A stretch of DNA of 48,538 bases from Acidobacteriota bacterium (lineage in GTDB: Bacteria > Acidobacteriota > Blastocatellia > Pyrinomonadales > Pyrinomonadaceae): contig JBDTZW010000236.1 in NCBI GenBank assembly GCA_040004905.1, positions 1 to 48,538 of the forward strand. The letters run 5' to 3'. A program made the translations under genes and the position numbers. Numbering within the stretch: the stretch's first letter is position 1; each line of letters opens with the position of its first letter. The notes under the pieces were generated by a model. The model ran no database searches. It worked only from the letters and a program-made list of their open reading frames with translations, and was not told the DNA's origin. Positions 33,227 through 48,538 of the stretch are shown one piece after another.

Positions 33227-34311
33227 TTGCCCGTAATGCTTGCACGTCTTAGCTCACGATAAGTTGGCATACGGCGATACTGTTTCGATAACTTTCGAAT
33301 TGCCGACAAGATCTCGTCATTGGTATATCTACGCGAGTTTGGCGCTACCTCGGAATAGCCTGCGGCCTTGTATGCACTCGGCAAGCTACCAAACATGCTC
33401 GCAAATGTGGTCGCAGCAGCGCATTCGCCGAGCTTGCTTGCGGAATTGATATCCCGGTCTGTCGGCTTTTTGCCAAGCTTGTTACATAACGCCTTAAGCT
33501 GAGTGATTAATTCTTCCTTCGTATATTTCTGCCAGTATGCTGTCCGCTCCTTCGCTTTACGATAAGCCGTCTGTGTTCTGGCGGCACGACGTGCTTTCGA
33601 TAGCGTCCCGAACTCCTTCAGAAACATCTTCACCGATGGCCCTTTACCGGCGTCATACAACCTCCAAATATCCGTTTGCTGTATTGGGCGGTCGAGTGTA
33701 GCGTCCAACATGCCAAGGATCGCAATCATCTCCTCGCGAGTGTAAATCTTTTTGGCGGCACCGGCCACCTCGATTGCGGCTGGAACCGACCCGAACGCTC
33801 GTACAAAATGATAAGGAGGTGAAACCTCTTTTCTCCGTCTCGCCTCATCAACGTCTTCGTCGAAAAGAGTTCGGCCCAATTTCAGCTGGAGTTGGCGAAG
33901 TTGATTCAGAAGTTTTTCGCGATCAGATGCGTCAAATTCCTGCTTATACCTGGGCTTCAGTTTTGCCTGCTTCAAAGCCGTAAGAAAGCTGCCGAATACC
34001 GCATAGTAAATATATAAAGGATGAACGCGCTCCTGTTCTCTTAGAGCCGGCCAATCGTTTGTTATCGGTGTCCTTCCCAATTCGCTCGCGACCTCTTTCA
34101 ATTCCGCGATTAAATATTGCTTCGACGGAAGGTCTGCCGTTCCCCGCCGCTTGTTTTTACCGGTTCTAATCTCAGGGTTCTCAAGGAACCAACGGCGGCA
34201 TGAACGGCAATAGAACCTTCGCTTCCGATGTTTCCCAAATCCGGCCATGCAAGTTGCACCGCTACCGCAGTGGTAACAAATAAACCCCGATGGAATCGCT
34301 GGTCGCCCCAT
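33154..34311 (-). CDS. Zn-ribbon protein with five homing-endonuclease-associated-type (HEAR/HNH_repeat-like) repeats
   Basis: N-terminal CxxC...CxxC (CYHCGSGATC...YCRSCRRWF). Five ~55-aa repeats start at LIAELKEVASELGRTP, LLNQLRQLQLKLGRTL, MIAILGMLDATLDRPI, LITQLKALCNKLGKKP and ILSAIRKLSKQYRRMP. Most of the repeats end in a FGS/FGT motif followed by an ...A.. segment. No nuclease domain is visible. The start overlaps the radical-SAM stop (TAATG). Confidence 0.65.
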   Translation of the reverse strand: MGRPAIPSGFICYHCGSGATCMAGFGKHRKRRFYCRSCRRWFLENPEIRTGKNKRRGTADLPSKQYLIAELKEVASELGRTPITNDWPALREQERVHPLYIYYAVFGSFLTALKQAKLKPRYKQEFDASDREKLLNQLRQLQLKLGRTLFDEDVDEARRRKEVSPPYHFVRAFGSVPAAIEVAGAAKKIYTREEMIAILGMLDATLDRPIQQTDIWRLYDAGKGPSVKMFLKEFGTLSKARRAARTQTAYRKAKERTAYWQKYTKEELITQLKALCNKLGKKPTDRDINSASKLGECAAATTFASMFGSLPSAYKAAGYSEVAPNSRRYTNDEILSAIRKLSKQYRRMPTYRELRRASITGKCPSPGTIVKRIGKLVDLKSQFER

Positions 34312-34991
34312 TATTCAATAGTAACATCGGCGATAAATCTTTGATTTCGCGAACCGCGATACTCTCCCGCGCTTTCTTGCTGGCTGACCACGAATGGTCC
34401 GTCGATCAGCAAATCGATGTGGCAAAGAATATAGTCGATGCTTGGCACTCGTTTCTGTATCAGCTGCTCGATCGTATATCCGGAATATACAGTAATATGA
34501 ATACCCTGGTTCTTCAGCCTAGATACAATCTCGGCAACGGATTCGGGTTGGTCGAATGGCTCTCCGCCAAGAATGGTTACACCGTCATGCTCGATGGAGT
34601 GTGAAACGACCGCATCTACAATCGAAGCGATAGAAACCAGATTCCCATTACCTCGCTCGTGAGTCTGAGGTACGAAGCAGTGCCTACAGCGAATTGAACA
34701 TCCAGAGGCTTGGATTACGCTGCGGCGGCCCGGGCCGTCAACAACCGAGTTGTGATAAAGCCGGTAGAGCCAGATCGAAAAAGAATCTGAATCGAGCTTA
34801 TCCTCAGATGACCGAAAAGACTGCAAAACGGGCAAGTATCTCTTATTGTCAGCCGGCTTGGCACAATTCACGTCAGTGCGCCGTCCGAGATCACTCGCAA
34901 TATCATTTGATGCCTGTGCCGAAACCTGGGAGATCTCGACAGTCACGCGTCCCGCGTCCGGCTCCAGTACGAAGACTGCTTCTTTATTCAT
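34311..34991 (-). CDS. NrdG-like radical-SAM activating enzyme with ~80-aa N-terminal extension
   Basis: VVDGPGRRSVIQASGCSIRCRHCFVPQTH (CxxxCxxC preceded by DGPG), TILGGEPF, and size and order typical of anaerobic-RNR/PFL activases. ATG 34991 overlaps the DUF2997 gene by 8 nt. Confidence 0.8.
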   Translation of the reverse strand: MNKEAVFVLEPDAGRVTVEISQVSAQASNDIASDLGRRTDVNCAKPADNKRYLPVLQSFRSSEDKLDSDSFSIWLYRLYHNSVVDGPGRRSVIQASGCSIRCRHCFVPQTHERGNGNLVSIASIVDAVVSHSIEHDGVTILGGEPFDQPESVAEIVSRLKNQGIHITVYSGYTIEQLIQKRVPSIDYILCHIDLLIDGPFVVSQQESAGEYRGSRNQRFIADVTIE

Positions 34992-35178
34992 TGGAGCCTA
35001 CCCGCCTCTGCACCGCTGGCTTGACCTGATACTCGGCCGTTTTCCGATCCGTCATCGGTGCCCCGAGTACCTCCTTCAACTGGCGAGCGGTTTTCTCGCA
35101 TGCCGGTCCCTGAATACCGTTGATCTGTGTTTCGCATTTTCCGGTTTCGGTATAGATCGTAAATTCGATTTCGGGCAT
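34984..35178 (-). CDS. DUF2997-family small protein
   Basis: MPEIEFTIYTETGKCETQINGIQGPACEKTARQLKEVLG...TAEY matches the DUF2997 pattern as I remember it. It occupies the expected position after DUF1257. Confidence 0.75.
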   Translation of the reverse strand: MPEIEFTIYTETGKCETQINGIQGPACEKTARQLKEVLGAPMTDRKTAEYQVKPAVQRRVGSNE

Positions 35179-35195
35179 GGTTGGACTCCTGATTG

Positions 35196-35594
35196 CTAGA
35201 ATTTAACTCGAATTTTTACGGTCTTTCCGATCCGCTCTTTGACCAGAGTTCCGCCGAGTTTCTTTGCCATTTTGCGAGCGACGGCTTCGTGATAGGAATT
35301 CTGGATCCGGACAACGAAGTCCTTCCCAAGACGGTAATCAAGATCCATGTCATCGACCACCGCAACGTAACCCGAAGAGGTTTTCTGAAAGCCGATGTCT
35401 GCCAGAAGATGATGGTTCCTAACATCTTTTCTCCGAATAATGATGTCGGCGGTTCGAGCATTTCGCTTATCCCAGCCGTCTAGCGGGAGCTCCTTTCCTT
35501 CAGTCACCGCCGTAAAACCCATTTCGGATAACGCCTCAAGTAATAACTTACCGTTCGCAAACGACTGTGATTCGAATGTCATATATTTGGACAT
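35196..35594 (-). CDS. DUF1257 (Ycf35-like) protein
   Basis: 132 aa. MSKYMTFESQ...LLLEALSEMGF...ADIIIRRKD...DIGFQKTSSGYVAVVDDMD...IQNSYHEAVARKMAKKLG follows the DUF1257 layout. Confidence 0.75.
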   Translation of the reverse strand: MSKYMTFESQSFANGKLLLEALSEMGFTAVTEGKELPLDGWDKRNARTADIIIRRKDVRNHHLLADIGFQKTSSGYVAVVDDMDLDYRLGKDFVVRIQNSYHEAVARKMAKKLGGTLVKERIGKTVKIRVKF

Positions 35595-35615
35595 GACTCA
35601 ATTTGGCCCCCTACC

Positions 35616-37235
35616 TTAGAATTCATAGATCCGATCACCTCGGGTTCCTGCTATACCTGAGCTGTCGATCTTGCCGGCAGCTCCTTTGATATTGTTCCGC
35701 GCCCATTTGCGAATCTCTTCGATCTTTTCGCTCATCATCTGGGCGGTTGGCGAGATGCTCTCGACGGCCTTGAGAATGTCGCGCGTTTCAGCTGAACGGT
35801 CCCCGTCGATGAATGCCTCAAGGACTCCATCTTTTACCGCTCCTTCAATCTCCGCTCCGGAAAAGTCCTTGCTTTTCTCAACTAACTTATCGAGATCGAA
35901 ACGGTCAGGCTCAAGCTGTCTTTTCTTTAGGTGAACTTTGAAGATCTCCGTTCGATCTTCATGATCGGGCAAATCAACAAAATGAATATAAGAAAATCGG
36001 CCGATGCGGAACTGCTCCGACTCGAGCTCTCGAACATCGTTGGCGGTAGCGAAGACGAGAACATCGCGATTGTCCTGCATCCAGTTGAGAAGATAAGAGA
36101 TCGTTCGGGCCGTTTCGCCGCCGTCGGTTTTGTTCGAGGATTTCATTCCAGAGACAGCTTTCTCAAATTCACTGATCCCGAGAATTCCCTTGATCGTTCC
36201 GGCGATCGACAAAGCTCGCTTTATGGACATTGCTGACGATCCGATCACGCCCCCGCCCTCGCCCATGATCGATCCGAAGTCGAGGTCAAGAAGCGCACGA
36301 TTTGTGATCGAAGACGCGACCCGCTTGCAGAGGTCCTTCCCGCAGCCAGGCAATCCAACAAGGAGAATCCCCTTGCATGGCTCGACGTGCCGAGCCTTAG
36401 CTTGCGGGCTGAACGTATATGCAGCACGTTCCAGGATCGCTCTTAAGGACTTATATCCGCCGAGATTGCTCGCTGGCTCGGGATGTACGTATGTCAGGGA
36501 ACCGCTGCCGCGAATGACATTCTTCTTCTCTTCGAGAATCACACTGATCGACTCGCGATTCAGGCCGTTACAGCTTATTACTGCCTTCGCTATGACATTG
36601 CTGATCTCGCCGGCAGTTAAACCGAGAAGTGACTGCAGCAACGCTGTCTGCGTTTCCTTTTCAAGGTCGATGGCAAGGCCGCTCGATCGCAGGTTCTCAA
36701 GCTGGAGCTCGATCGATTCTTCGATCTCGGTTTCCTTAGGAAGATCCAGCTCTATCTGCGTGATCTCCTTTTCGAGAGTCTTGAGATCTGGAAAGTTTGG
36801 TCCGACAAAAAGGACTGTCGCTTTTGTCGATTTCAGCTTCCAAGCTATTTCGCGAAGCCTGCGAACCAGCAACGGATCTTCCTGACCATACGGAGAGATA
36901 TAAGGGGCATAATCGCAGAGGAGAAAGATTCCGGTCTTTTGATCCCCGATGAACCCAAGTACACTTTCTGGATCTTCCGTATCGCCGACCGTGGTCGGAT
37001 TCTGCTCTACACCTTCCTTGGGATCAACGATCTTTTGCAGGCCCGTGGGACGACTCCAGAAATATAAAGGTTTCTCTTTGTGTCGATCCTGGAAGACGAG
37101 ATCGATCAAAGCCTCGCGAACTCTGTCCTCTTCGTAGGTGTTGATTGCGATAAGCGGATATCGGGCCCTTATACGGATATCCAGTTCGTGCAGAAACTTC
37201 TGGATGCTATCGGCATCCGTTTGCTGGTCGGTCAT
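35616..37235 (-). CDS. Ycf46-like AAA+ ATPase with non-canonical Walker A/B
   Basis: N-terminal IRARYPLIAINTYEEDRV (Ycf46-type). AAA core GILLVGLPGCGKD, ILGISEFEK, VLVFATAN, FRIGRFSYIHFVDLP, and lid FSGAEIEGAV. Confidence 0.9.
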   Translation of the reverse strand: MTDQQTDADSIQKFLHELDIRIRARYPLIAINTYEEDRVREALIDLVFQDRHKEKPLYFWSRPTGLQKIVDPKEGVEQNPTTVGDTEDPESVLGFIGDQKTGIFLLCDYAPYISPYGQEDPLLVRRLREIAWKLKSTKATVLFVGPNFPDLKTLEKEITQIELDLPKETEIEESIELQLENLRSSGLAIDLEKETQTALLQSLLGLTAGEISNVIAKAVISCNGLNRESISVILEEKKNVIRGSGSLTYVHPEPASNLGGYKSLRAILERAAYTFSPQAKARHVEPCKGILLVGLPGCGKDLCKRVASSITNRALLDLDFGSIMGEGGGVIGSSAMSIKRALSIAGTIKGILGISEFEKAVSGMKSSNKTDGGETARTISYLLNWMQDNRDVLVFATANDVRELESEQFRIGRFSYIHFVDLPDHEDRTEIFKVHLKKRQLEPDRFDLDKLVEKSKDFSGAEIEGAVKDGVLEAFIDGDRSAETRDILKAVESISPTAQMMSEKIEEIRKWARNNIKGAAGKIDSSGIAGTRGDRIYEF

Positions 37236-37249
37236 AACTTTATTGGCAA

Positions 37250-37669
37250 TCAGGAAACAGAGTGGACAGCCGTGCGTCCGTTCTGGGCGCGATAGCCGTT
37301 TGCTCCGTTGGTCTTTGGGGGATCAGTGGTCATCCGCTCGACTTTCTGCATTTCCTCGCGAGACGCTAATCCGTTCTCGATCGAGAAGCCGAGGATCGCG
37401 AGGCCGCGACCTACGGCACTCGTCTCACAGTTCTCGACAAATGAGGTCGTATTAACGTAACCCTGGTTACGTATCTCGAAGGCGTGGCCCGTTCCGCTCG
37501 GCTCGGCGTCGTCCGGCTGGCGGAAGACATTCGCTTTCATACATACGAAGCCGGTTTCCTCATTCAGACGCACGATCTCGGTGACAATACGGCCTTGCGG
37601 ATACTTTATGTAAAACTCCGCAATACGGGAATGAACGGGATTGTATTTGCTTAGATCGAAGCTCGCCAT
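37250..37669 (-). CDS. small phage-type protein, possibly a Rad52/Sak-like single-strand annealing core
   Basis: VHSRIAEFYIKYPQGRIVTEI...GTGHAFE...VENCETSAVGRGLAILGF resembles the Rad52-family pattern (...A.TDA.KRAL..FG). This is a low-confidence family call, but the ORF is well packed in the operon. Confidence 0.55.
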   Translation of the reverse strand: MASFDLSKYNPVHSRIAEFYIKYPQGRIVTEIVRLNEETGFVCMKANVFRQPDDAEPSGTGHAFEIRNQGYVNTTSFVENCETSAVGRGLAILGFSIENGLASREEMQKVERMTTDPPKTNGANGYRAQNGRTAVHSVS

Positions 37670-37700: not shown

Positions 37701-39170
37701 TCAGAGTTCAAGCGCTGATAAACGATCTTCGTCAAGAAGTTTCCTGGACTGGACCGAAGTCAGTCGCAGAAGATCGTCGAGAGCGGTTCGCATTTCTTCC
37801 GGAGAGCGCTGCTTCACTTCGCGCCCCGCTGCGCCCTCAAGTTTGCTCAACACGTCTTCGAGCGATGTGTCGCCCGTAAAGTTCATTAGCTGATACCATT
37901 CGCACATCTGCCGTGCTCGTTTTGCGAGAGAACCGGGCACAAACTTCGCGTCCTTCAACCGCTGAGACATCTCCGTTGCCGCTTCGAAGATCTTTGAAGC
38001 GATCTGAGCAAAACCCTCCTTTACCGGGGATACGGCCTCTTCCGCCTCGCGTCTTGCGGCCTCGATTTTCATGTTGCGGATGCGTTCCTTGACCTCTCGC
38101 TCGCGGCGCGTTTCGTCTGTTGCTTCGTTAATCTTCAACTGTTCGATTTGCCGTTTTGTGTCCGCCTCAAGTTCCAGAGCGGTTCTCTCGGCGTTCAGTT
38201 TTGTCGTTTCGATTGCAAGTGTTCGCGCCAAGTTTCTCTCAGCGATCATCTCGGAGCCTAGAACGATCACCTTCGGCTTCATCGTTATCACGAGCCCGTC
38301 GCTTAGCATCTCTTTAGTTGGCACCATCCCGAGGGCTTGTGCGGTCACCGCCTCGACGAACTCATTTCGATTGAAAGGTTCGTCGACCGTTGCCAGCAGC
38401 CTGTTTGCCGAGTCCTCGGCAAGCTCGCGAAAACTGTCGGTCAGAATTTCAATAATATCGTCGTATTTTTCGAGAACTTCGGCCTTGGCCCGCGAAAGCG
38501 TTTCGCATGCGCGAAAGTACGCCTGCTCGAATTGCTCGAATGCCGTCCAGGGGATCCATTTATACTCGCTGGTCCCCCAGACGGTCTCACATAAAGTGAA
38601 GCGGAAACCGTACTTATTGAGAGCGTTATGAGCTTGAGCCGCTCCGCGCATCAGTTTGTTTCGAGATACATCGGGCAGCAGTCCTGCTCTTGGTGGGCTA
38701 ACGCGAACCGCGGCTTCTTCTGGAAGTTTTACTCCAAGTGTTCTCCATTCCAACTGCCGGATCAGACTGCCGAAACCACGACAGTCGATATTCATGAAGA
38801 TACCCTCGCTCTCCAGCGTCGAAAGGTCGAAGGGCAATGACTCGACCTCGTTTGCACCGATACCGAGTTCTGCGGCGGCCCGTTCTTTTCTTGCATCAAG
38901 ACGCCTAAAAACATCATGAGCCAAGCTCGATTGCGAGATCGAGTCAGCGGAAGGCGTGATTTCAAAAGAATCGATTGCCTCGGCAGGTTTCGATTCTTCG
39001 GGCGCGTTCCGCCTGTCATCAGACATCGGCAACGCTGTTTCTCTATTTGAGTTGGCGAGGCCATTCCGGCCGAAAATATTCTGTAAGACCGATGAGGCCA
39101 GCGAATTCGGTTTAGTGACCGATACCGGCGTACCGGCACGTTCTGCTAACTGTTGAGTTTCCATCTTCAC
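37701..39170 (-). CDS. hypothetical 489-aa protein with C-terminal coiled-coil region (possibly DUF3150-like)
   Basis: The long ORF fits the operon spacing. The central region (FMNIDCRGFG...KYGFRFTLCETVWG...FEQAYF) vaguely recalls DUF3150 proteins of ICE/plasmids. The C-terminal half is Glu/Arg/Lys-rich and helical. Confidence 0.7.
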   Translation of the reverse strand: MKMETQQLAERAGTPVSVTKPNSLASSVLQNIFGRNGLANSNRETALPMSDDRRNAPEESKPAEAIDSFEITPSADSISQSSLAHDVFRRLDARKERAAAELGIGANEVESLPFDLSTLESEGIFMNIDCRGFGSLIRQLEWRTLGVKLPEEAAVRVSPPRAGLLPDVSRNKLMRGAAQAHNALNKYGFRFTLCETVWGTSEYKWIPWTAFEQFEQAYFRACETLSRAKAEVLEKYDDIIEILTDSFRELAEDSANRLLATVDEPFNRNEFVEAVTAQALGMVPTKEMLSDGLVITMKPKVIVLGSEMIAERNLARTLAIETTKLNAERTALELEADTKRQIEQLKINEATDETRREREVKERIRNMKIEAARREAEEAVSPVKEGFAQIASKIFEAATEMSQRLKDAKFVPGSLAKRARQMCEWYQLMNFTGDTSLEDVLSKLEGAAGREVKQRSPEEMRTALDDLLRLTSVQSRKLLDEDRLSALEL

Positions 39171-39234
39171 ACTCTTCTGTCATCCGCCTGTTTTCTGGGT
39201 CATGAGCTAATTTCCATGCTTTGCGTTAAGAGGC

Positions 39235-39534
39235 TTAGCATATGCATGTGCTAAATGACATCGACTCAAAATACAGGTCTCTCTCAACTTTTAGACCACT
39301 TATTTCAACTTCTTCCAGCTCCCGCAATGTAAAATAACCCCACTCGGATTCGAAACCGATAACGTGGCCAAAGAATAGGAACTCGTCGGCCTGGGCTTCG
39401 CCTTTGGTTACAAACCAGGTCCATCCGGATGCCGGAAAGAAGAACTTCGCGTATACGGTAGGGTCCGAAGAACTTTCTTGTTCGCCCAATTGCGGTAGAG
39501 CACTCCGAAGAGCGTCGTCGAGAAGGATTGACAT
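39235..39534 (-). CDS. DUF2958-domain protein
   Basis: DPTVYAKFFFPASGWTWFVTKGE...FLFFGHVIGFESEWGYFTLRELEEV...KVERDLYFE is a close match to the DUF2958 consensus found on ICEs and plasmids. Confidence 0.85.
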   Translation of the reverse strand: MSILLDDALRSALPQLGEQESSSDPTVYAKFFFPASGWTWFVTKGEAQADEFLFFGHVIGFESEWGYFTLRELEEVEISGLKVERDLYFESMSFSTCIC

Positions 39535-39540
39535 ATCTGG

Positions 39541-40404
39541 CTATCTTTTCTTTGAGACTGCGGCCGCGATCTGATCAGGGGTGCAGTAAAGGGAGCGGCC
39601 CGTGCCACTATCGAGATCGAAATATGTGGCGAATCTCTTGAGCGATCTTGTGAGGAACATCTCGCAAAGCATCTCAGCCAATTCAATTGCAACCCGCTGA
39701 TTTATGTTGAGACTTTGTTCTCCAAGACGAATCCGGTCAGGGCAGGAAAGTCTTTCGAGGTCTTCTGATCTGGCCGGCTTTTCTGGCGCAAGAAGATCGG
39801 GATGCACAAGCGATGGGGCAGGGAGAGAGCGGCAGATGCTTGTCGCCGTGAAATGCTGATCCGGCTTTATCCGCTTCGTATTCGAGCCGAGAAGAACCTG
39901 TCCCGATGATCGGCCATTGCCGCCATCTATCCACCATAAATCGGGAGCATCCGAAGAACCGTATCTCCGATACTTATCGATCGCAAGATGAATATCGCGC
40001 CGCGCGAAATGGTTGTCGACGCAGCCGACGATAATCGTCATCGAACGATAGTCGCTGGTCGAAGCCCTAAGATGGTTCTCGCCGTCGAATAACTCATTTG
40101 CGTAATGGCACTCCAATCCCCATGCAAGGGTTATTCTCTTTGCAAGAGACTGTGCCTTGAAACTACCTATCTCCGCCGCACAGAAGTTGCTTCTCGGTAT
40201 ATTGCCACTCTCTACCATATCCGGATCGACTATCAACATCTCGACCGGCTTACTTTTCTGTTTCAATTCAAACATCAGCCTTGCGATCGCGGGGACCACA
40301 AACGATCCTGTTCCGCCCGCTCCGACGACGATGAAGCGAAGGCTGCTGTACTCTCTAGGCATCACAACGGCAGCCTGTGAGAAACTTAGATCGATCTGCT
40401 TCAC
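39541..40404 (-). CDS. ThiF/E1-like adenylyltransferase (PRTRC ThiF-type)
   Basis: Rossmann motif FIVVGAGGTGSF, then LIVDPDMVESGNIPRSNF and IIVGCVDNHFARR. GTG 40404 overlaps the JAB stop (GTGA). An alternative ATG lies at 40365. Confidence 0.9.
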   Translation of the reverse strand: MKQIDLSFSQAAVVMPREYSSLRFIVVGAGGTGSFVVPAIARLMFELKQKSKPVEMLIVDPDMVESGNIPRSNFCAAEIGSFKAQSLAKRITLAWGLECHYANELFDGENHLRASTSDYRSMTIIVGCVDNHFARRDIHLAIDKYRRYGSSDAPDLWWIDGGNGRSSGQVLLGSNTKRIKPDQHFTATSICRSLPAPSLVHPDLLAPEKPARSEDLERLSCPDRIRLGEQSLNINQRVAIELAEMLCEMFLTRSLKRFATYFDLDSGTGRSLYCTPDQIAAAVSKKR

Positions 40405-41057
40405 AACAACATCTCCACAAGCGCGTCTATCTCGTCGAGGTCGATGATCTCTTCCGGCATTTCACCGACCCAAAGCGCCGGGATCGGAACGAGGTGGTCG
40501 TAAACACCGCAACGGAACCTTATCTTCGGCTTGTCGTGAACATCCATCAGGATGCCGAAGATCCTGAACTTGCCTAGTTCATCCGCGTCGTCCGCTCTGC
40601 TGAAATTCAACGCCCCGGGCGGGTGCGTATGCAGTTCGATGCAGCAGTCTGCGTATTCCCGCAATGCATCGTCGGCGATGGTCGATACCACGCTGTGTTC
40701 GCGGCCGGCCGCTATCCATTGCCAGGCGCCACGTTCCTTGTCCCAGTAGATGAGGTAAATCTCTTCCCTAAAATTCGAGGATGTGTGCGCTCGCCGCGCG
40801 TGCAGGAATATATCAAGCCACAAAGACGCTGGTATTTTTGGTTTTGTCCACGTGATACCGATCGAGGCATTCGGGAGGCCCCATACCTTTTGCATACTGA
40901 GCGGCAAAGATACGGAAAACTCCCGGCGTTTCGCACGAACGAATAAACCATTTCCGGTGAGAAGGTATTCATAGAGAGCCGCTTCTATCGGGTCATTCTC
41001 ACTCACGGCGATGCGGTGCCCGACCAGTTTTGGCAGGGCGATAAAATTTGGAGTCAT
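40401..41057 (-). CDS. JAB/MPN (JAMM) metallopeptidase (PRTRC protein A-like)
   Basis: Complete JAMM signature ELHTHPPGALNFSRADDAD (HxH-x7-S-xx-D). Confidence 0.9.
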   Translation of the reverse strand: MTPNFIALPKLVGHRIAVSENDPIEAALYEYLLTGNGLFVRAKRREFSVSLPLSMQKVWGLPNASIGITWTKPKIPASLWLDIFLHARRAHTSSNFREEIYLIYWDKERGAWQWIAAGREHSVVSTIADDALREYADCCIELHTHPPGALNFSRADDADELGKFRIFGILMDVHDKPKIRFRCGVYDHLVPIPALWVGEMPEEIIDLDEIDALVEMLL

Positions 41058-41072
41058 ATAATGGAATTGGGT

Positions 41073-41762
41073 TTAGAAGCGGCTGTCGTATCGGTTTCGC
41101 TCGACGATTGATTCCCATGCGTCCTCGACAGTGCTCGACGACATGATCAATTGGGTCGCCGGGAACTTCTTCACCTTGTCCGAAGCCAATTTTGCGAGCA
41201 AAGTGCGAACGTCACCTTCCGTCTGGCATCTTCCCGTCGAATGATCGCCATTGAATGGAGCGTCGAAGATGAGCTTCCAGACATCCTGCAGCATCGAAGG
41301 ATGCGTCTCCGGGACCTCGTTCTGCCCGAAGCAGATCTTTCCCGAGCCGATATTCGGTAACGGCGCGACGGCCAGTCGAGTATTCCGGGTGACCTTCGAA
41401 CTCGATGCGGCCCACAGGTAGTAGTCCTTCCCTTTCCCGAGAAGGATCAACGTCGGGAGAGGCAAGATTAAGGTCTCTACACGATCGCCCGGAAAGACAA
41501 TTGCTATAGTTCGCGGGGCCGCCGGCAGATATGAAAGGATCGCGTTGCCGTCCGTCGCTTCGCGATACCGCAAGACCCGTCGATCTATCCAACCCGTGTC
41601 CGTTTGCAGATCGCGAAACGCCCGCGTCACCTGAGTACTCGATAAAGCCTTTAAGGCGTGCCGGTTCTCCCCGAATGTCTCGAACAGATACTGTCCGGGC
41701 AGAAAATAGAGTGCCGCGGCAGCATCCGGCGGTACAGTATGATTCCTCATCGATTTATTCAT
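41073..41762 (-). CDS. E2/UBC-like protein (PRTRC protein B / Prok-E2_B-like)
   Basis: APLPNIGSGKICFGQNEVP...WKLIFDAPFNGDH parallels the ApYwN...vC.Gs..iP...W...FF.S.FtH core of PRTRC-B proteins as I remember them. It sits directly upstream of the JAB and ThiF genes, as in PRTRC. Confidence 0.75.
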   Translation of the reverse strand: MNKSMRNHTVPPDAAAALYFLPGQYLFETFGENRHALKALSSTQVTRAFRDLQTDTGWIDRRVLRYREATDGNAILSYLPAAPRTIAIVFPGDRVETLILPLPTLILLGKGKDYYLWAASSSKVTRNTRLAVAPLPNIGSGKICFGQNEVPETHPSMLQDVWKLIFDAPFNGDHSTGRCQTEGDVRTLLAKLASDKVKKFPATQLIMSSSTVEDAWESIVERNRYDSRF

Positions 41763-42600
41763 CCGAAGATCGAACTGGACCGGAGTCCGAACCGGACAGC
41801 CCCAGATCGGGATGCTCTCCCGTGTTCCAGAAGTCGATAAGTGCCCGCAGCATCTTTTTCGGTTCTGCCTCTATCATTTCATCGAGCTTATTCAATCTTT
41901 CTAAGATCTCATTTGCCGCCTTGTATTCCGCCGTGAGCACTTCGATCGTTTCGCGGTCCCAGGAGTACCAGTCGGCGGTTTGGCAATAGTTCGAATCGAG
42001 CCACGGATTGCCGGTTGAGTGATCCACCAACCGCAAAAGTTCTCCGATAAGTCCGATAAGAGAGCCGCTCTGCGCCGCCCAGACATTCTGATGGGGACTG
42101 GAATGGATCGAGGGGAAATCCTTTCTCGACAGCTTGTACTGATGGTCGAGGAAATCCCAGGCGTCGTCCGGAAAGTAGAAGATCAATGCAGCGGCGTAGC
42201 TCACCTTCAGATTGTCGAAATATATATCTTCACAGCATAGATCGATATTTAACGGCGGGATGGCGAACTGTTCGAACTCGTTCTCCGGGTCGTCGTAGGC
42301 GAATTCAAGCAGCGGGAAACACTTTTCATTCACCAGATTGAAAAGCTCGTTGATCCGCTCGCTGTATTTCCCGTAGTAGCCGCGCCTGTAAAGACTCGCT
42401 TTGGAGCGCTCCCATTCGTTCGGAAATATCTCCCGATACAATCCATATTTCTGCTGCTCGGAGAGGACACGGGCGACGAGATCGTATGCGGTAATTGCAT
42501 TGTGACTCCGAGCCTTGAAGCTCAGGTACTCAAGAGATTTTGAAAGCCGTTCGGCAAACCCAAGTTCCTCCGACAGTCGCTCTTTAGGCATCGAGTACAT
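41755..42600 (-). CDS. hypothetical helical 281-aa protein (position of PRTRC protein F)
   Basis: Aromatic-rich ORF predicted to be helical. It overlaps the E2-like start by 8 nt. I recognise no motif. The PRTRC-F equivalence is positional only. Confidence 0.7.
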   Translation of the reverse strand: MYSMPKERLSEELGFAERLSKSLEYLSFKARSHNAITAYDLVARVLSEQQKYGLYREIFPNEWERSKASLYRRGYYGKYSERINELFNLVNEKCFPLLEFAYDDPENEFEQFAIPPLNIDLCCEDIYFDNLKVSYAAALIFYFPDDAWDFLDHQYKLSRKDFPSIHSSPHQNVWAAQSGSLIGLIGELLRLVDHSTGNPWLDSNYCQTADWYSWDRETIEVLTAEYKAANEILERLNKLDEMIEAEPKKMLRALIDFWNTGEHPDLGLSGSDSGPVRSSDE

Positions 42601-42612
42601 ATGCCGTTTACC

Positions 42613-42882
42613 CTAAAACCCTGTTGGAACGTGAATCGACGGACGTGCAGGCGATCTCTCGAAAGCCGCGATCTGACGTCGTATCGTTTCGATCTCGCTT
42701 CTGCCTTCGTCCAGGATCTCTTCTGCGCGGTTTATTTCTTCAGCGCTCAGAAGGTCGGCGGCATTTCTTAACATGAACTCTTCGGCCAACAGGATCGTCG
42801 GATTCACCCGTTCCGTTTCTGCGATCAGGATATCGAACGGAGACTCGTTCCCGTTCACAGAACCGCTGCTTAGAATTTCCAT
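42613..42882 (-). CDS. hypothetical 89-aa protein (first gene of the operon; track ORF extends to 42981)
   Basis: ATG 42882 (MEILSSGS...) follows GGAGG with 9-nt spacing. The 33 codons upstream (42883-42981) look like read-in from the decayed Rhs cassette. The protein looks helical, not beta-grasp. Confidence 0.5.
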   Translation of the reverse strand: MEILSSGSVNGNESPFDILIAETERVNPTILLAEEFMLRNAADLLSAEEINRAEEILDEGRSEIETIRRQIAAFERSPARPSIHVPTGF

Positions 42883-42984
42883 TTTTCCCAACCTCCGCAT
42901 TCTGGCAGCCGCTCTTTTTTGTTTTACAAAAACAGATTTGACAGGAATTTTGCTCGCGATGTGGGATCTAATCAGATTCATTAT

Positions 42985-43612
42985 GAGACGCCCGAGCCAG
43001 CTGAAAAATCCTAGTCCGCTTGGGTCAAGGTGGTTTATCGATCGTTTCCGCAGAAAGCGTAAAGGTTCAGCGTCTGCGGACTCGCGAATGAAACAGCATT
43101 CATGCCCGCCGGATCGACTTGAGTAAATCTGCCTTGCTTCGAGTCGTATGTCCGGTTGACAGCGTAGTCGAGTTCAGTTCGCGAGCTTCGTTCGTAGCTG
43201 GTGAACCGTTTTGGATTTGTGGTTAGGGTCGATTCGGCGTTGAGTGCAGTGCCGAATGGCAGGTGGGCCTGTTCGTAGCTAGTTCCGGCTGTCTGATTGG
43301 TAACCAGCCTGGTTCCCAAACGGTCGGGGCGGTTGTATTCGGTCGTCTAGCCACCTGAGCCGTTTGGCGTGATCGTCGAGAGAAGACTGTCGCCTAAGTA
43401 AATGCACGTCTTTGACCATGAAAGAGTGCCGTTTCCGTTTGTCTCGGAGTATTCAACCGCGTCGCCATACCAGGTCGTCAGCCACGAAACGACGTCGGTC
43501 AAAGCGATCCGCTCATTGCCGACACCGAACTGCTGACTTTCGATCAGTGTACCATCATTCGGTTCATTGCCCTGTTTGATATTCACGCGACTATTCGCCG
43601 CATCGCATCCAA
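42985..43612 (-). pseudogene. orphan Rhs C-terminal cassette 3 (core-end only, decayed)
   Basis: Homologous to the main rhs gene from ...DAAN.RVNIK... to ...CGND(P)INHLDPSGLGFF. In-frame TAG at 43347-43349 (GAG in the main copy). 1-nt deletion after 43040 (tatcgatcg versus tatcggatc in both other copies). Track ORFs 43347..43586 and 43035..43319 are its pieces. Confidence 0.8.
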
Positions 43613-43640
43613 AGCGCAGCCGCTACGTAATTCAGAATCT

Positions 43641-44075
43641 TTACTTTGGAAAACCCCGTTGAACGACGGTAAAATCTTTCTTACTAATATGATAAACTAC
43701 GTCAATTCCATTCTCGGTCTCCCCACCAACATAAACCTGATTCGGTTCGCGTTTGACCAAAAGCGTTCCGACCAGCAGATCAGTGTTGGAAGCTTTATCC
43801 TCATGTATCTCTAATTTATAGTTGGCAAGATTTTTCTTACCCTCGGGAATCTCTTTATCATTTTTGAATGCGTAAAGTATCGAATTAACTACTTGAAGTT
43901 GTTCCGAGCTAAGCGCAATTTCGAGCTGAGAACCCTTTAGGGTTTGTATGTCTCTTACTTGCTCTCCGTTTGTTGGAGCGATCAGTTCATCATTTTGAAG
44001 CCTTTTGCCGGAATCTAAAGATCCGCACGAGGCGAAAAGCACAGTCATTAAAAAATAGGGAATTATTTTTGTCAT
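43641..44075 (-). CDS. exported/lipoprotein immunity candidate for orphan cassette 2
   Basis: ATG 44075 overlaps the toxin stop (ATGA). MTKIIPYFLMTVLFASCGS is a signal peptide with a lipobox-like LFASC. Confidence 0.65.
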   Translation of the reverse strand: MTKIIPYFLMTVLFASCGSLDSGKRLQNDELIAPTNGEQVRDIQTLKGSQLEIALSSEQLQVVNSILYAFKNDKEIPEGKKNLANYKLEIHEDKASNTDLLVGTLLVKREPNQVYVGGETENGIDVVYHISKKDFTVVQRGFPK

Positions 44076-45447
44076 TTTATTTTTGTCCTCCCAACTGTCG
44101 CAACTTGCCAACCTGCCGGGTTTCTACTGTACCGCATAAGGTTTCCAGAAGGAGTTGCAAGCCAGCTTGGAAGATTACCGCCCTCGGCTGAAGCTACATC
44201 GCCCGGAATTGGACTCCCAGGAAGTCCCGAAAACTGTTCATTCCAGTCAGTCCCCCCTATGACGCTACTTTCTTCCCAATGAGCGTGGGTATGGTATAAA
44301 CCGGCCAACTGACTGTCTTTCGGGCACGTATTAGGAATTCCACCACCGGCCGGCCCCAAAACTACAGGAACCGTAGAAATAAATACACCGGGCTTTAGTT
44401 TGCAAATAAATCCTGCAATTTCTCTATTTATCCTAATGGATCGTGCATTAATCTCCTGGAGTATCGCTATGGCAGCCTGCTGAGCGGTTCGATACCTCTT
44501 TCTTGGCTTGCCTTGAACAAGACTATTCCCAACGGCACTTCCGGCTCTGACACCGCCAAGGAAAACTTGCCACCATGATATATGTGAGGCAGATTCTCCA
44601 GTGCTGGCAAGGTTCACAATGATGGAATTAGCTATATTTGACGAGGCTCTGATCGCCGCTATTCCTGCGCCAATCCCCGTTCCAATTGCAATCCAACCCA
44701 AAATTTTTGCAGCCGTAGTATAACCAAGGGCACTCATAACCGACGATCCGGCTGAGGCAGTAGCGCTGACAGCAGCCAATATGCCTGCGATGGTTGCAGG
44801 CGCTGCTACTATTGTTAGAATAGCCACGACCACAGCAATTATTGCTACAATCCATTTGAATAGTTTCTTCAGGAAACTGAAAAAGCCCAGCCCGCTTGGG
44901 TCTAAATGATTTATCGGATCATTCGCACAGTAAACATACAGATTGAGCGTTTGCGGAGCGGCAAGGCTTGTCGCTTCCATTCCAGCCGGATCTACCTGGG
45001 TGAAGCGACCTTGTTTACTGTCATAGGTCCGGTTGACGGCGTAGTCGAGTTCGGTTCGCGCACTTCTCTCATAAGAGGTGAAGCGTTTTGGATTGGTGGT
45101 CAGCGTCGATTCGGTGTTGAGGGCAGTGCCGAAAGGCAGGTGTGCCTGTTCGGAGCTTGTGCCGGTCGCCTAATTGGTTACGAGCTTTGTTCCCAAACGG
45201 TCTGGGTGATTGTATTCTGTCACCTCGACACCCGCTCCGTCCGGCGCGATCGTGGAAAGCAGGCTGTCACCGAGATAGGTACAGGTCTTTGACCATGCCA
45301 GGATTCCGCTGGTGCCGCTTTCGATATATTCCATCGAGTCGCTGTACCATGTCGTTTGATTCGCAACCGTATCAGTCAAGGCGATCCGCTCATTCCCGAC
45401 ACCGAAGGTCTGACTTTGAAGAAGAGAACTGTCGCTGGCCTTTTTGA
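44072..45447 (-). pseudogene. orphan Rhs C-terminal cassette 2: core-end + TM-rich linker + DUF4329-like toxin, interrupted by one in-frame TAG
   Basis: A single frame from ~45447 (LVNIKKASDSS...). TAG at 45170-45172 (CAG in the main copy). It continues ...RFTQVDPAGMEATS...NDPINHLDPSGLGFF, then a Gly/Ala-rich hydrophobic stretch, then YRTAQQAAIAILQEINARSI...GLYHTHAHW...FSGLP...ATPSGNLMRY (DUF4329-like). The intact distal ORF is 44072..44980. Confidence 0.8.
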
Positions 45448-45699
45448 TGTTTACAAGGCTCTTCCCATGAAACTAGTACTTCCCGTATTCCTTCTAATCA
45501 AGATCGTTTCGTTTTCTCAAACCCTTTATGATTTGGCAAAAGACCAAATCCAACACCTAAATATCAATCCAAAGGTCGATCGGTGCGCGAAAGACGGCAA
45601 TGGTTCTGACAAGGCGCTGAATCTTGCAAGGAACCGAATCGGCCTTCCCAAGGACCCTTTCGAATTGATCAGTAACGACTATCGTTTTTTTATGTTTCT

Positions 45700-46293
45700 T
45701 TATTTCTGAACATTTTTTTTAGTTTCTTCTAGAAGGGCTTTTCGCTTTTCCCAATATACTGCATCAACTAATTTTAGAAGTTGAACTAACGAATCTGGGT
45801 AGACTCCCGAGCTTTCAAGATGAACGTGGCTGTCGTTTTCTTCAATTATTATTTTCTTCATAGCATTATCGGATAAATAATTGACGGTGACACGAATTTT
45901 CGAATCCAAGATGCGCCTAGTCGGAGTGTACATTGTCTTTGGTTCATCAAAACGCATCTTGTCAAAGATCGTTAAAAAAGCGTCAAATTGCTCTCCGGTT
46001 ATTGCCGAACGTTTGAGTTCCGTTCTAAACGGAACGCCCGCGAGATCTGGTCCATATTGAGGAAAAAAATCAAACTCAATCGCCGCGTCGCTATAAAGTC
46101 GAAGCGTCAAAGTTTTTCCGGGCGGATACACCGGCCCCTCAGACTCACTTACGACTTCCAATAGAAGCCTTTCGTCTCCATTGGTAGCGTTTGTGTATCT
46201 TGAAGACGAGCAGCTCGCTGAAAAGGCGAGAGAAGCAAAAATAAAAACAATCAAAAGAGAACTCACAATATATTTATAGCAATACATACTCAT
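45700..46293 (-). CDS. exported immunity candidate for the main Rhs toxin
   Basis: Starts 36 nt after the rhs stop. The N-terminal hydrophobic leader IVSSLLIVFIFASLAFSASCSS suggests a signal peptide, possibly a lipoprotein. Confidence 0.6.
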   Translation of the reverse strand: MSMYCYKYIVSSLLIVFIFASLAFSASCSSSRYTNATNGDERLLLEVVSESEGPVYPPGKTLTLRLYSDAAIEFDFFPQYGPDLAGVPFRTELKRSAITGEQFDAFLTIFDKMRFDEPKTMYTPTRRILDSKIRVTVNYLSDNAMKKIIIEENDSHVHLESSGVYPDSLVQLLKLVDAVYWEKRKALLEETKKNVQK

Positions 46294-46329
46294 TTTTCTT
46301 AGCTCCTACTTGCCAAAAAGGTCGTCCGG

Positions 46330-48538
46330 TCAAAAAGGAAGACCCTCTTCTACCGGAGGAAAATCTACCCCAAAACAGTGTTTTGCGATTCCTCGATTGA
46401 AATAATCATCATCCCGATTAATCTTTCCATCTCGCAATACTTGATCATGTGGTGTTCCGGTCAAATGTTTCACTTCGTGAAGCAAAATAAGGGTTCTCGT
46501 GTTGGCCGAATTAAGAGTTCCGGTCCAACCACCAACGCCACTATCGAACCAGGGGGCGCCCAATTGAATATGTCCGCTAGATCCTCCGTTTAAGGGTGAT
46601 TGAGCAACCGCGCCACCAATATCATGAAACCTGGGGATGTCCTTTCCAATTTGACCCTTATTATAGACGTCGGTTAAAATTTTCGCTGGATCACCCTTAA
46701 ATTCTTCTTGAAGAAATTTCTTACAGTCAGGCTTGCTATTGATTCTCCAGAGAGCGCTGTTAACGGCCGCACGGACGAGGCGATCATTCTTAGAATCTCC
46801 TTTTATACTCTTTGCAAAACTATTAGCAATTGCACCGACGGAACTTCCCGTTACAAGGATGCCTGATCCTATAACGCCGGGCGGAATTCCTTCCGCAACA
46901 AAGCTAAAAATGCCGCCAAGGGCGTGACCAACAGCCCCAACAAAATTTCCTATCGTTGCCGGAATGCCAGCTATAAAAGTAAGCGCTTGTCCTAAGAGCG
47001 TATGCACAAAAGCTGCCATTGCCATCGGTGTCAAAAATGTGCCAACGACGGTCAGGATTGCAACAGCGATTGTAACAGCGAGCATTACCCATTTGAATAT
47101 TTTAGAAATCCAATGAAATAATTTCCCCCAAAATAGCCCGTTTGGATCAAGATGGTTTATCGGATCATTTCCGCAATATGAGTAGAGATTTAGACTCTGC
47201 GGGGCCGCTATGCCAACCCCCTCCATTCCCATTGGATCGACCTGTGTAAATCGTCCCTGTTTGGAATCGTAGGTTCTATTTACTGCGTAATCGAGTTGAG
47301 TTCGCGCACTTCGCTCGTAGGAGGTGAAGCGTTTCGGATTAGTCGTTAATGTCGATTCGGCGTCGAGGGCTTTGCCGAACGGCAGATGGGCTTGCTCCAA
47401 GCTTGTGCCGGTCGCCTGATTGGTTACGAGCCTTGTTCCCAAACGGTCTGGGTGATTGTATTCTGTCACCTCGCCGCCGGCTCCGTTCGGTGTGATGGTG
47501 GAAAGCAAACTGTCACCGAGATAAGTGCAGGTCTTCGACCATGCAAGAGTCCCGTTTCCGTTGCTTTCCGTGTACTCAACCGCGTTGCCGTACCACGTGG
47601 TCTGGTTTATCACATTATCCGTCGAAGCGATCCGCTCGTTCCCAACACCAAACGTCTGCATCTGAAGCAGCGAACTATCGCTTGCCTTTTTGATGTTCAC
47701 AAGGCGATTCGCTGCGTCGTATTCGAAGAGGTCCCACGTGCTTCCATCCTGATCAAGAGCCTTGGTTTGGTTCCCCGCAACATCGTACTCGAACTGCCCG
47801 GTGGCATTCGATGTCGTGACCTGATTGTTTGCGGTATTGAAGGCTAGATTGGGAATACCGTCCGCCGGCATTGTCGTGTTGTCGGCTGCGACGCCCGTGG
47901 CCGCAACGGACGTTCTATTGCCGTAACGGTCATAGGTGTAGGTCTGGCTCCACAAAGCGCTGTTAACTCCGCCCTTTGCCAAGGTCAATCTCCCAATCGC
48001 ATCGAACTTATATTCACGATCTTTGTTGTGATCGAGATTATTGCTGATCTTCGTCAAATGTCCAGTCTTGCCGCTCAATGTGCCGATCGAGTTATTTCGG
48101 TTGTAATCGTAGGTCAGATCGAGCAGAGTCTTGCTGCTGCCGACCGCCTTTTGATTCGTCAGTAATCCTGTCTGCGGATCGAACGTATACTGCTCGTTTA
48201 CCTGGTTTGCGCCGGAGGGTCCGATGTTGATCGATGTCGTTTGATCCGCCGCGTTATAGACAAGGTCACCGGCTTGCTGCACCTTATTCAGGGCTGTTCC
48301 GTATTTAAGCGTAGTAAGACGGCTAGACGAATCGTAAGTGTAATAGACAAACTTTCGCGGAGAGCCTGACAAGCCGTACTGTGCCGGAAGCCGCATCGTG
48401 GCTGTCCGGTTAAGAGTGTCATACGTGTAGCTCGTGATCATCGGATAACCCGTGCGGGTCAAAAAGGTCTTGGTCTCGTCAGACACCCGCCCTTCCGTAT
48501 CGTAAGCAAGCTCATCGGTGCTCACGCCCGCCGAGGTG
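46330..48538 (-). CDS. Rhs/YD-repeat toxin (5' end outside window) with HExxH-type C-terminal domain
   Basis: The frame is open to the window edge. YD repeats (YTYDTLNR, YTYDRYGNR, FEYDVAGNQ, FEYDAANRL). Core-end motif NDPINHLDPNGL. A hydrophobic Gly-rich stretch, then a C-terminal domain with LILLHEVKHLTG. Confidence 0.9.
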   Translation of the reverse strand, partial: TSAGVSTDELAYDTEGRVSDETKTFLTRTGYPMITSYTYDTLNRTATMRLPAQYGLSGSPRKFVYYTYDSSSRLTTLKYGTALNKVQQAGDLVYNAADQTTSINIGPSGANQVNEQYTFDPQTGLLTNQKAVGSSKTLLDLTYDYNRNNSIGTLSGKTGHLTKISNNLDHNKDREYKFDAIGRLTLAKGGVNSALWSQTYTYDRYGNRTSVAATGVAADNTTMPADGIPNLAFNTANNQVTTSNATGQFEYDVAGNQTKALDQDGSTWDLFEYDAANRLVNIKKASDSSLLQMQTFGVGNERIASTDNVINQTTWYGNAVEYTESNGNGTLAWSKTCTYLGDSLLSTITPNGAGGEVTEYNHPDRLGTRLVTNQATGTSLEQAHLPFGKALDAESTLTTNPKRFTSYERSARTQLDYAVNRTYDSKQGRFTQVDPMGMEGVGIAAPQSLNLYSYCGNDPINHLDPNGLFWGKLFHWISKIFKWVMLAVTIAVAILTVVGTFLTPMAMAAFVHTLLGQALTFIAGIPATIGNFVGAVGHALGGIFSFVAEGIPPGVIGSGILVTGSSVGAIANSFAKSIKGDSKNDRLVRAAVNSALWRINSKPDCKKFLQEEFKGDPAKILTDVYNKGQIGKDIPRFHDIGGAVAQSPLNGGSSGHIQLGAPWFDSGVGGWTGTLNSANTRTLILLHEVKHLTGTPHDQVLRDGKINRDDDYFNRGIAKHCFGVDFPPVEEGLPF
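47146..47700. repeat. ~0.56-kb Rhs core-end segment present in three copies (also ~44890-45447 and ~43010-43612)
   Basis: The nucleotide similarity is visible by eye, e.g. gttacgagccttgttcccaaacggtctgggtgattgtattctgtcacctcg (main) against gttacgagctttgttcccaaacggtctgggtgattgtattctgtcacctcg (cassette 2). Confidence 0.85.

Follow-up and report, generated by a model that had tools for sequence, protein, structure and literature searches.

The DNA analysed here, referred to throughout as the window, is a stretch of 48,538 nucleotides (contig JBDTZW010000236.1, assembly GCA_040004905.1) from an Acidobacteriota bacterium of the family Pyrinomonadaceae, and the assembly to which it belongs is a metagenome-assembled genome (MAG) that is 82.6% complete and divided into 470 contigs. 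The minus strand of the window carries a tightly packed array of genes running from 42981 down to 32741, in which the widest intergenic gap spans 64 nt (39171-39234). The first genes of this array, at 39541-42882, encode an 89-aa product and a 281-aa protein, followed by an E2-like protein, a JAB/JAMM peptidase and a ThiF-type E1, the putative enzymes of a ubiquitin-like conjugation pathway. The gene for a small ubiquitin-like protein (Ubl), which precedes these genes in related loci, has been lost from the window copy through an internal deletion.

Enzymes of the cassette and absence of a modifier gene from the window

Scans of 15 window products against Pfam, NCBIfam and PADLOC outlined an enzymatic core whose best NCBIfam matches all fall on components of PRTRC, the ParB-related, ThiF-related cassette (TIGR03734-03742) that corresponds to operon type 6d in the accessible part of Iyer, Burroughs and Aravind 2006 (PMC1779556). 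The E2-like protein matched Prok-E2_D at 79.6 bits, against a cut-off of 25, and PRTRC_B (TIGR03737; cut-off 131.45) at 64.1 bits. Its residues C140 and H150 are invariant among 12 sequences presenting 69-100% identity to the window E2, and in relatives the protein begins at residue 5 of the window open reading frame (ORF), which gives a length of 225 aa. The JAB peptidase scored 20.8 bits with Prok-JAB, under the cut-off of 25, and 40.1 bits with PRTRC_A (TIGR03735; cut-off 101.8). Its JAMM residues (E98, H143, H145, S153 and D156) do not vary among 28 sequences, and neither do R44 and W112, which are also conserved in a cyanobacterial plasmid homologue included in this set and are candidate counterparts of the Arg and Trp of type 6d. 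The E1 contains a single ThiF domain and matched PRTRC_ThiF (TIGR03736) at 130.9 bits (E 4.6e-38; cut-off 144.75), with the G28/G30/G31 nucleotide loop, R71, D130 and four Cys residues invariant in 44 sequences. It also presented weak PADLOC matches to Cap2-type E1-E2 models (E 4e-8 and weaker). The likeness to canonical PRTRC operons drawn in a first-pass annotation of this DNA hence stands as regards the families matched by E1, JAB and E2, and falls short in that all three enzymes lie below the NCBIfam cut-offs.

The same annotation had described an E2-JAB-E1 cassette with neither a Ubl gene nor ParB, and our results bear this out for the window. The remaining minus-strand ORFs of 60-126 aa within 33.1-43.0 kb (35216-35461, 36245-36427, 38792-39139, 39408-39692, 39737-39937, 40712-40972, 41212-41592 and 41901-42086) each lie wholly within a larger gene in another frame, leaving no spare small minus-strand ORF between genes. 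The C-termini of the 14 products, read again, match the list given earlier and none ends in Gly, which in the first product (...PTGF) is the penultimate residue. No Ubl or ParB family was detected among the 15 scanned products, and a profile of the Ubl family found in relatives matched, in the window, only the 80-aa gene's own domain. The DUF2997 protein (64 aa) was considered as a cryptic Ubl and dismissed, its C-terminus not being conserved. A six-frame scan of the whole 4.03-Mb assembly returned no match over cut-off for Prok_Ub (PF14454) or PRTRC_C (TIGR03738), the best E values being 0.053 and 0.42, on contig C324. ParB_N (PF02195) was found in the assembly only on contigs C215 and C460, outside the cassette, and the Pfam scans of products from the window and from the left half of a related locus (L026) showed no ParB.

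Location of the Ubl gene and deletion in the window copy

Database searches at E <= 0.001 returned 411 relatives of the E2, and among the 120 listed those with a named source are almost all from Pyrinomonadaceae or Acidobacteria, together with one Leptolyngbya record. The scan of a genome collection yielded 80 related loci, with some MAGs contributing several each, and tblastn searches and ORF calling established that the cassette is syntenic across them as far as the contigs allow. The conserved order begins with a ~390-aa gene, the ~85-aa Ubl gene, an 80-aa gene whose product ends in P-x-G-F and the 281-aa gene, and continues, after an ERF gene (PF04404) in some loci, with E2, JAB, E1 and DUF2958. 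Past a variable insert (Mom-like, DUF6878, DUF6915 or Fic) there follow the 489-aa gene, a 139-aa gene (phrog_11717) or a WGR or 68-aa gene, and the genes for AAA, DUF1257, DUF2997 and radical-SAM proteins. Homology between loci spans the full 10 kb upstream, where a methyltransferase-like gene, a Strawberry-notch-type helicase and a sigma54 activator are encoded. The intact order is present in a genome of the same genus (G074), and E2 was detected in 23 of 151 sampled genomes of the family, all 23 of which match the Ubl/P-x-G-F profile, mostly on the contig that carries E2. The cassette is carried on an integrative element present in one to several copies in Pyrinomonadaceae genomes. Its nearest plasmid relatives are cyanobacterial (41 records, 25 typed as conjugative); a Pseudanabaena plasmid presents the order 69-aa gene (...GPKG), 83-aa gene (...IRGF), 254-aa gene, E2, JAB and ThiF. 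On the Chroococcidiopsis conjugative plasmid NZ_CP097481.1 (L084), a Prok-E2_D gene occurs without adjoining JAB or E1 and is followed by AbiE and other toxin-antitoxin genes.

In all 66 loci whose contig extends upstream of the 80-aa gene, the Ubl gene lies directly before the latter (as an ORF in 65, through tblastn in L002), and its stop codon usually overlaps the start of the 80-aa gene. The Ubl gene encodes about 85 aa, of which some 60-65 residues form the domain. The core is near-identical across loci through ...VKRAQHKG, and the motif K[RK][AP][QGL][HAY]KG is carried by 65 of 65 ORFs. What follows the K-G varies from nothing (4 ORFs) or one residue to as many as 15 variable residues or a fused helical domain (L047), and G62 remains invariant even when the cyanobacterial plasmid homologue and the fusion proteins are aligned. 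Conservation that runs up to a Gly and then gives way to a variable tail characterises processed Ubl precursors. Such processing is described for BilA in the accessible part of a study of Bil (10.1101/2023.09.26.559546), where trimming at Gly97-Ala98 by the JAB protein BilC is needed to expose the Gly. Relatives of the Ubl number 619 in the database at E <= 0.001, none of the 120 listed has a Pfam domain, and Prok_Ub was over its cut-off in none of the 151 family genomes.

In blastn comparisons, the window is homologous to its relatives up to 42857, at codon 2 of the 80-aa gene. Beyond this point, a stub of 75 bases (42858-42932) corresponds in the alignment to the 5' untranslated region (5'UTR) and first eight codons of the ~390-aa gene of the relatives, including ATGGAAATTCTAAGCAGCGGTTC. 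At the junction, located around 42858-42860, codon 8 of the 390-aa gene thus continues in frame with codon 2 of the 80-aa gene. An internal deletion, about 1.4 kb long, has therefore taken out the remainder of the 390-aa gene and the whole Ubl, and an in-frame 89-aa product is left. The junction is bridged with 0 differences by separately assembled Logan contigs from 4 of 4 public runs, all belonging to one study that is possibly the source of the assembly. Upstream of the stub lie Rhs fragments and not the left half of the element, and a GG-N10-GC sigma54 promoter pattern sought by eye in the stub was inconsistent across relatives. Since 66 of 66 related loci carry the Ubl beside the cassette, its absence from the window reflects a deletion in one copy and not a Ubl-less design.

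The assembly contains one gene each for E2 and the 80-aa protein, both in the window, and a single Ubl gene, located on another contig (C270). Four sources had been suggested in the first-pass annotation for the missing modifier, and this gene substantiates the proposal that it is encoded elsewhere. A processed operon protein and a host or phage protein both found no support in the analysis, and the fourth suggestion, an unrecognised fold such as that of the 89-aa product, is discussed below. Contig C270 holds the left half of the element in canonical order, with the sigma54 activator present, and ends this order with the 390-aa gene and the Ubl. The homology of this Ubl stops right after ...KRAQHKG, its frame continuing for 125 unrelated residues, and the Rhs ORF that follows runs off the contig end (L087:11877-15452). 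The far end of the window (43035-48538) likewise lies in an Rhs ORF, in an orientation compatible with C270. Comparisons of the two contigs by blastn and tblastx revealed no shared sequence, so they cannot be joined by overlap. They may be neighbours, in a single locus interrupted by a cluster of Rhs genes, or represent two partial copies of the element, and the stub argues for a history more complex than simple adjacency. With enzymes and tag on different contigs and the tail of the tag abnormal, the system would work in trans or not at all, and we regard conjugation in trans and no conjugation in this genome as about equally probable.

The helical P-x-G-F protein and neighbouring genes

Where the contig covers 1.4 kb or more upstream of E2 (66 loci), the 80-aa gene was identified in 64 cases, the two exceptions being a truncated element (L036) and an insertion that pushes the gene off the contig (L076), and the 67 homologous ORFs in the loci all end in P-x-G-F. 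An alignment of 64 sequences with 62% mean identity contains eight invariant columns (L10, N18, A24, E54, I55, P77, G79 and F80). The AlphaFold2 (AF2) model of the protein (predicted local distance difference test, pLDDT, 88) comprises three helices and a 13-residue extended tail and is not beta-grasp; Foldseek returned nothing for it at E <= 0.001, and the protein could be assigned to none of the families in Pfam, NCBIfam or PHROGs. Among 1.84 billion representatives searched with a profile, 45 proteins matched at E <= 0.001. Among the 25 examined, 21 end in G-F, 2 have the motif followed by extra residues and 2 match the N-terminal part only, and in 9 of the 25 a Ubl domain of ~65 residues is fused N-terminally to the helical domain. 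Fused forms were also evident in the family, with profile matches over both domains in 9 of 24 matching genomes. Natural Ubl/P-x-G-F fusions include L047:8105-8659 and the proteins P0144, P0146, P0147, P0152, P0159, P0161, P0162, P0166 and P0167.

In eukaryotic fusions of ubiquitin to ribosomal proteins, the tag is made as a precursor and its C-terminal partner is freed by cleavage after the Gly of the tag. By analogy, cleavage after the Ubl Gly is the likely fate of the Ubl/P-x-G-F fusions, although the partner here differs in being helical and in having its own invariant G-F end. The prediction of a complex of E1, the P-x-G-F protein and ATP scored 0.00 in two runs for which controls were not folded, and constitutes neither support nor counter-evidence for an interaction. 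As a candidate modifier, the 89-aa product retains in its favour the invariant P-x-G-F end (67/67); as a replacement for the Ubl it does not hold up, being helical and always co-occurring with the latter.

The features of the array are compiled in the table below. The 122/89-aa, 281-aa, 489-aa and 139-aa products match no Pfam or NCBIfam family.

Features of the minus-strand array, in order of descending position
Feature	Position	Strand	Evidence and remarks
Stub of upstream 390-aa gene	42858..42932	-	Conserved 5'UTR and first 8 codons, ATG at 42882; DNA alignment with four relatives, blastn, sequence itself
89-aa product: 8 residues of 390-aa gene plus 80-aa helical P-x-G-F protein; C-terminus ...HVPTGF	42613..42882	-	
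281-aa protein outside Pfam, NCBIfam and PHROGs families, syntenic in relatives	41755..42600	-	Present in related loci
E2-like protein (Prok-E2_D)	41073..41762	-	PF14460 3e-22
JAB/JAMM peptidase with N-terminal extension	40401..41057	-	Prok-JAB E 3.6e-4; PRTRC_A below cut-off
ThiF-type E1, 287 aa	39541..40404	-	PF00899 6.6e-11
DUF2958 protein, 99 aa	39235..39534	-	PF11171 1.4e-9; syntenic in loci
489-aa conserved protein, C-terminus ...LSALEL	37701..39170	-	
139-aa protein (phrog_11717)	37250..37669	-	PHROGs 3.6e-34
AAA+ ATPase, 539 aa	35616..37235	-	PF00004; PAN, CDC48 and IetA-like matches; 79-93% identity across loci
DUF1257 protein, 132 aa	35196..35594	-	Pfam; present in loci
DUF2997 protein, 64 aa; C-terminus not conserved	34984..35178	-	Pfam and locus comparison
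Radical-SAM activase-like protein (NrdG/PflA-like)	34311..34991	-	Pfam, NCBIfam
HNH_repeat protein, 385 aa	33154..34311	-	Pfam
Tyrosine recombinase C-terminal fragment, 161 aa	32741..33226	-	Pfam; 79%-identical L057 homologue has 394 aa

The 281-aa protein conserves S69, E81, L89, F95, P96, T196, W200, D202, L222, W258 and N259 as invariant residues, and a search of the ESM Atlas was uninformative, with a best feature score of 0.75 and a template modelling (TM) score below 0.4. The AAA+ ATPase is the best-conserved gene of the element and forms, downstream of the conjugation genes, a constant block with those for DUF1257, DUF2997 and the radical-SAM activase-like protein (34984-37235). The 139-aa gene, positioned between the 489-aa gene and AAA, presented 26 ORF matches in the loci, and the ERF gene, with which it alternates from locus to locus and which is found in the gap between the 281-aa gene and E2 (e.g. 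L003:9489-9989), presented 29, with one locus (L030) carrying both; phrog_11717 and ERF-type annealing genes may be alternative recombinases.

Among 60 homologues of the ~390-aa gene product with a length of 250 aa or more (e.g. L003:6961-8133; C270 copy, L087:9394-10581), 59 have the C-terminus Q-x-x-[LM]-F with 0-3 residues after it, which resembles the bacterial sliding-clamp-binding motif. In seven loci (L072-L081), the C-terminus Q[PL]SLF is found in the product (192-203 aa) of a gene located between those for E1 and DUF2958. Elsewhere in the window, a further recombinase, of 402 aa, is encoded on the plus strand within the segment 17525-32556. The genes that come after it encode a CBS protein, a patatin-like phospholipase, a metallo-beta-lactamase-fold protein and proteins of 623, 751 and 1181 aa, and the segment looks like another island beside the remnant of the element.

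Interpretation and comparison with known systems

The synteny across loci, the deletion, the location of the Ubl gene and the conservation patterns point to the block at 39541-42882 as the E2/JAB/E1 core and two accessory genes of a divergent PRTRC/'6d'-type cassette, the window copy of which is deleted for the Ubl. The modifier of this cassette would be the small Ubl, conserved up to an invariant Lys-Gly and followed by a variable tail or a fused P-x-G-F domain, and we assign to these two propositions jointly a probability of roughly 0.78. By analogy with BilA and BilC, the JAB peptidase would cut the pro-Ubl or the fusion after the Gly, the single-domain ThiF E1 would adenylate the Gly so exposed, and the Ubl would then pass to C140 of the E2 and from there to its targets. 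The window enzymes could act only on the Ubl of C270, with its 125-aa extension after the Gly, or would not act at all.

The fold of the Ubl is probably beta-grasp-like, judging from the AF2 model of the natural fusion P0147. This model places strands at 20-25, 28-33, 58-64 and 67-73, paired as two beta-hairpins, with helices between them and a pLDDT of 90-95 for the Ubl domain, and locates K79-G80 in a linker that precedes the helical domain. In a second look with VIA, residues 19-79 of P0147 aligned with residues 1-76 of ubiquitin (1ubq) with Z 3.9 and a root-mean-square deviation of 2.9 over 59 residues, and the Ubl domain scored Z 4.0 with MoaD (6jbz_B) and Z 4.2-4.4 with protein G B1; Z values of about 4 are, however, in the range that the tool itself calls common, and the Ubl domain was modelled only within the fusion. 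In a wide VIA search with the fusion model, all 50 matches listed fell on the helical domain (~89-162), so that this search has no bearing on the Ubl domain. Several other observations weigh against the reading proposed here. Foldseek identified no PDB match to the P0147 model at E <= 0.001, the weaker matches including many ubiquitin-like domains, and Prok_Ub matched 1 of 77 Ubl members from relatives (E 0.034), a near-total lack of sequence link to known Ubl families. The Ubl model offers no reason for the invariance of the G-F end in the 80-aa protein, and a MAG may conceal a second, unassembled copy with Ubl or combine contigs from different strains. Finally, no experimental study of PRTRC-type cassettes was found in the literature listings searched, so that conjugation itself is assumed.

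The strongest competing explanation, to which we grant somewhat less than even odds, is that the window cassette is an inert leftover of an element in decay, without any conjugating activity. In its favour, the window lacks the Ubl, most of the 390-aa gene and the entire left half of the element, 161 aa are left of a recombinase of roughly 394 aa, and Rhs fragments adjoin the stub. Decay on this scale is nonetheless at odds with the state of the 13 remaining cassette ORFs, which are all open and 50-93% identical to relatives, with the intact catalytic residues of E2, E1 and JAB, and with the survival on C270 of one Ubl gene and the sigma54 activator. It is, on the other hand, extremely improbable that the missing Ubl is an artefact of assembly. 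Although the source is a fragmented MAG, and the window and C270 contigs both end in repetitive Rhs genes, the junction is internal to its contig and the four runs that bridge it do so without a difference, with the reservation that their study may include the source sample.

Two further explanations would assign the role of modifier to another protein. The 80-aa protein could itself be a tag without a beta-grasp fold, from which JAB would remove the Phe for E1 to activate the Gly, and the Ubl-less copy would then still work. P77, G79 and F80 are invariant in spite of the 62% mean column identity, the G-F end extends to most of the distant homologues examined and to the cyanobacterial plasmid (...IRGF), the extended tail of the model is as in tags, and the deletion preserved the reading frame of the gene downstream of a conserved start region. 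However, the protein is never found without the Ubl in intact loci (66/66) and is often fused behind it (9/25 examined; L047), and this constant co-occurrence or fusion indicates an addition to the Ubl rather than a replacement. Moreover, its terminal residue is Phe, not Gly, and we know of no E1-E2 system with a helical tag, all of which makes this explanation unlikely. A role as second substrate of JAB and E1, be it as a conjugatable tag without a beta-grasp fold or as a pseudo-substrate regulator, is doubtful to the same degree; if true, the Ubl-less window copy, in which the gene stays in frame after the conserved start region, would represent a naturally occurring variant with the 'helical tag only'. 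Less likely still is that the small upstream protein is no modifier and that the E1-E2 pair conjugates the C-terminus of another operon protein, as the type II cyclic-oligonucleotide-based anti-phage signalling system (CBASS) does with its CD-NTase. Conserved C-termini in the 489-aa (...LSALEL), AAA (...YE[FL]) and DUF1257 (...KIRVKF) proteins and the weak Cap2-type matches of E1 would fit such a scheme, but these ends are no more conserved than the highly conserved proteins that bear them and lack a Gly, whereas the Ubl has the classic conserved Gly with a variable tail and a beta-grasp-like model.

The reading as a divergent PRTRC/'6d' cassette can be set against the features of type 6d given in the accessible part of its description (PMC1779556). 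Shared with it are a separate Prok-E2_D-type E2 with a Cys and a downstream His (here C140 and H150), a JAB with an N-terminal extension bearing a conserved Arg and Trp (here the candidates R44 and W112), a single-domain ThiF E1, mobile carrier DNA and, in the relatives of the window, an upstream small Ubl with a conserved C-terminal Gly together with a fast-evolving protein. The window copy departs from it in having no small beta-grasp-like protein ending in Gly, while the 66 related loci and C270 do have the Ubl. Further differences from PRTRC are the additional helical P-x-G-F protein, strictly linked or fused to the Ubl, and the downstream AAA, DUF1257, DUF2997 and radical-SAM block, as well as the sigma54 activator. 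With enzymes under the PRTRC cut-offs, a family Ubl under those of Prok_Ub and PRTRC_C, no ParB in the cassette and an added P-x-G-F partner, the system is a variant of the PRTRC kind and not a member of it.

The accessible parts of two studies (PMC11601603; 10.1101/2023.09.26.559546) describe for Bil, Bub and CBASS an enzyme architecture unlike that of the cassette analysed here. The BilABCD system is similar in its separate Ubl, E2, JAB and E1 and in a Ubl whose Gly is followed by one or more extra residues for removal by JAB; its E1, in contrast, consists of tandem inactive and active adenylation domains plus a CYS domain (PMC11601603), against a single ThiF domain here, and the PADLOC Bil models had no match among the window products. 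Type II CBASS shares the E1-like and E2-like chemistry and the JAB of Cap2 and Cap3, but Cap2 is an E2-E1 fusion that conjugates the CD-NTase C-terminus, without a Ubl in the system, whereas the enzymes here are separate and the family has a Ubl.

Cassettes of the PRTRC/6d type have been catalogued since 2006. The results reported here suggest that a large acidobacterial and cyanobacterial branch of this family uses a Ubl that is missed by current family libraries, so that annotation-based surveys would wrongly score such cassettes as Ubl-less. This Ubl has a conserved partner with an invariant G-F end, which is easily tested. In the window itself, the cassette has lost its Ubl by a natural deletion while a Ubl gene persists on another contig of the assembly, which cautions against reading single copies as designs.

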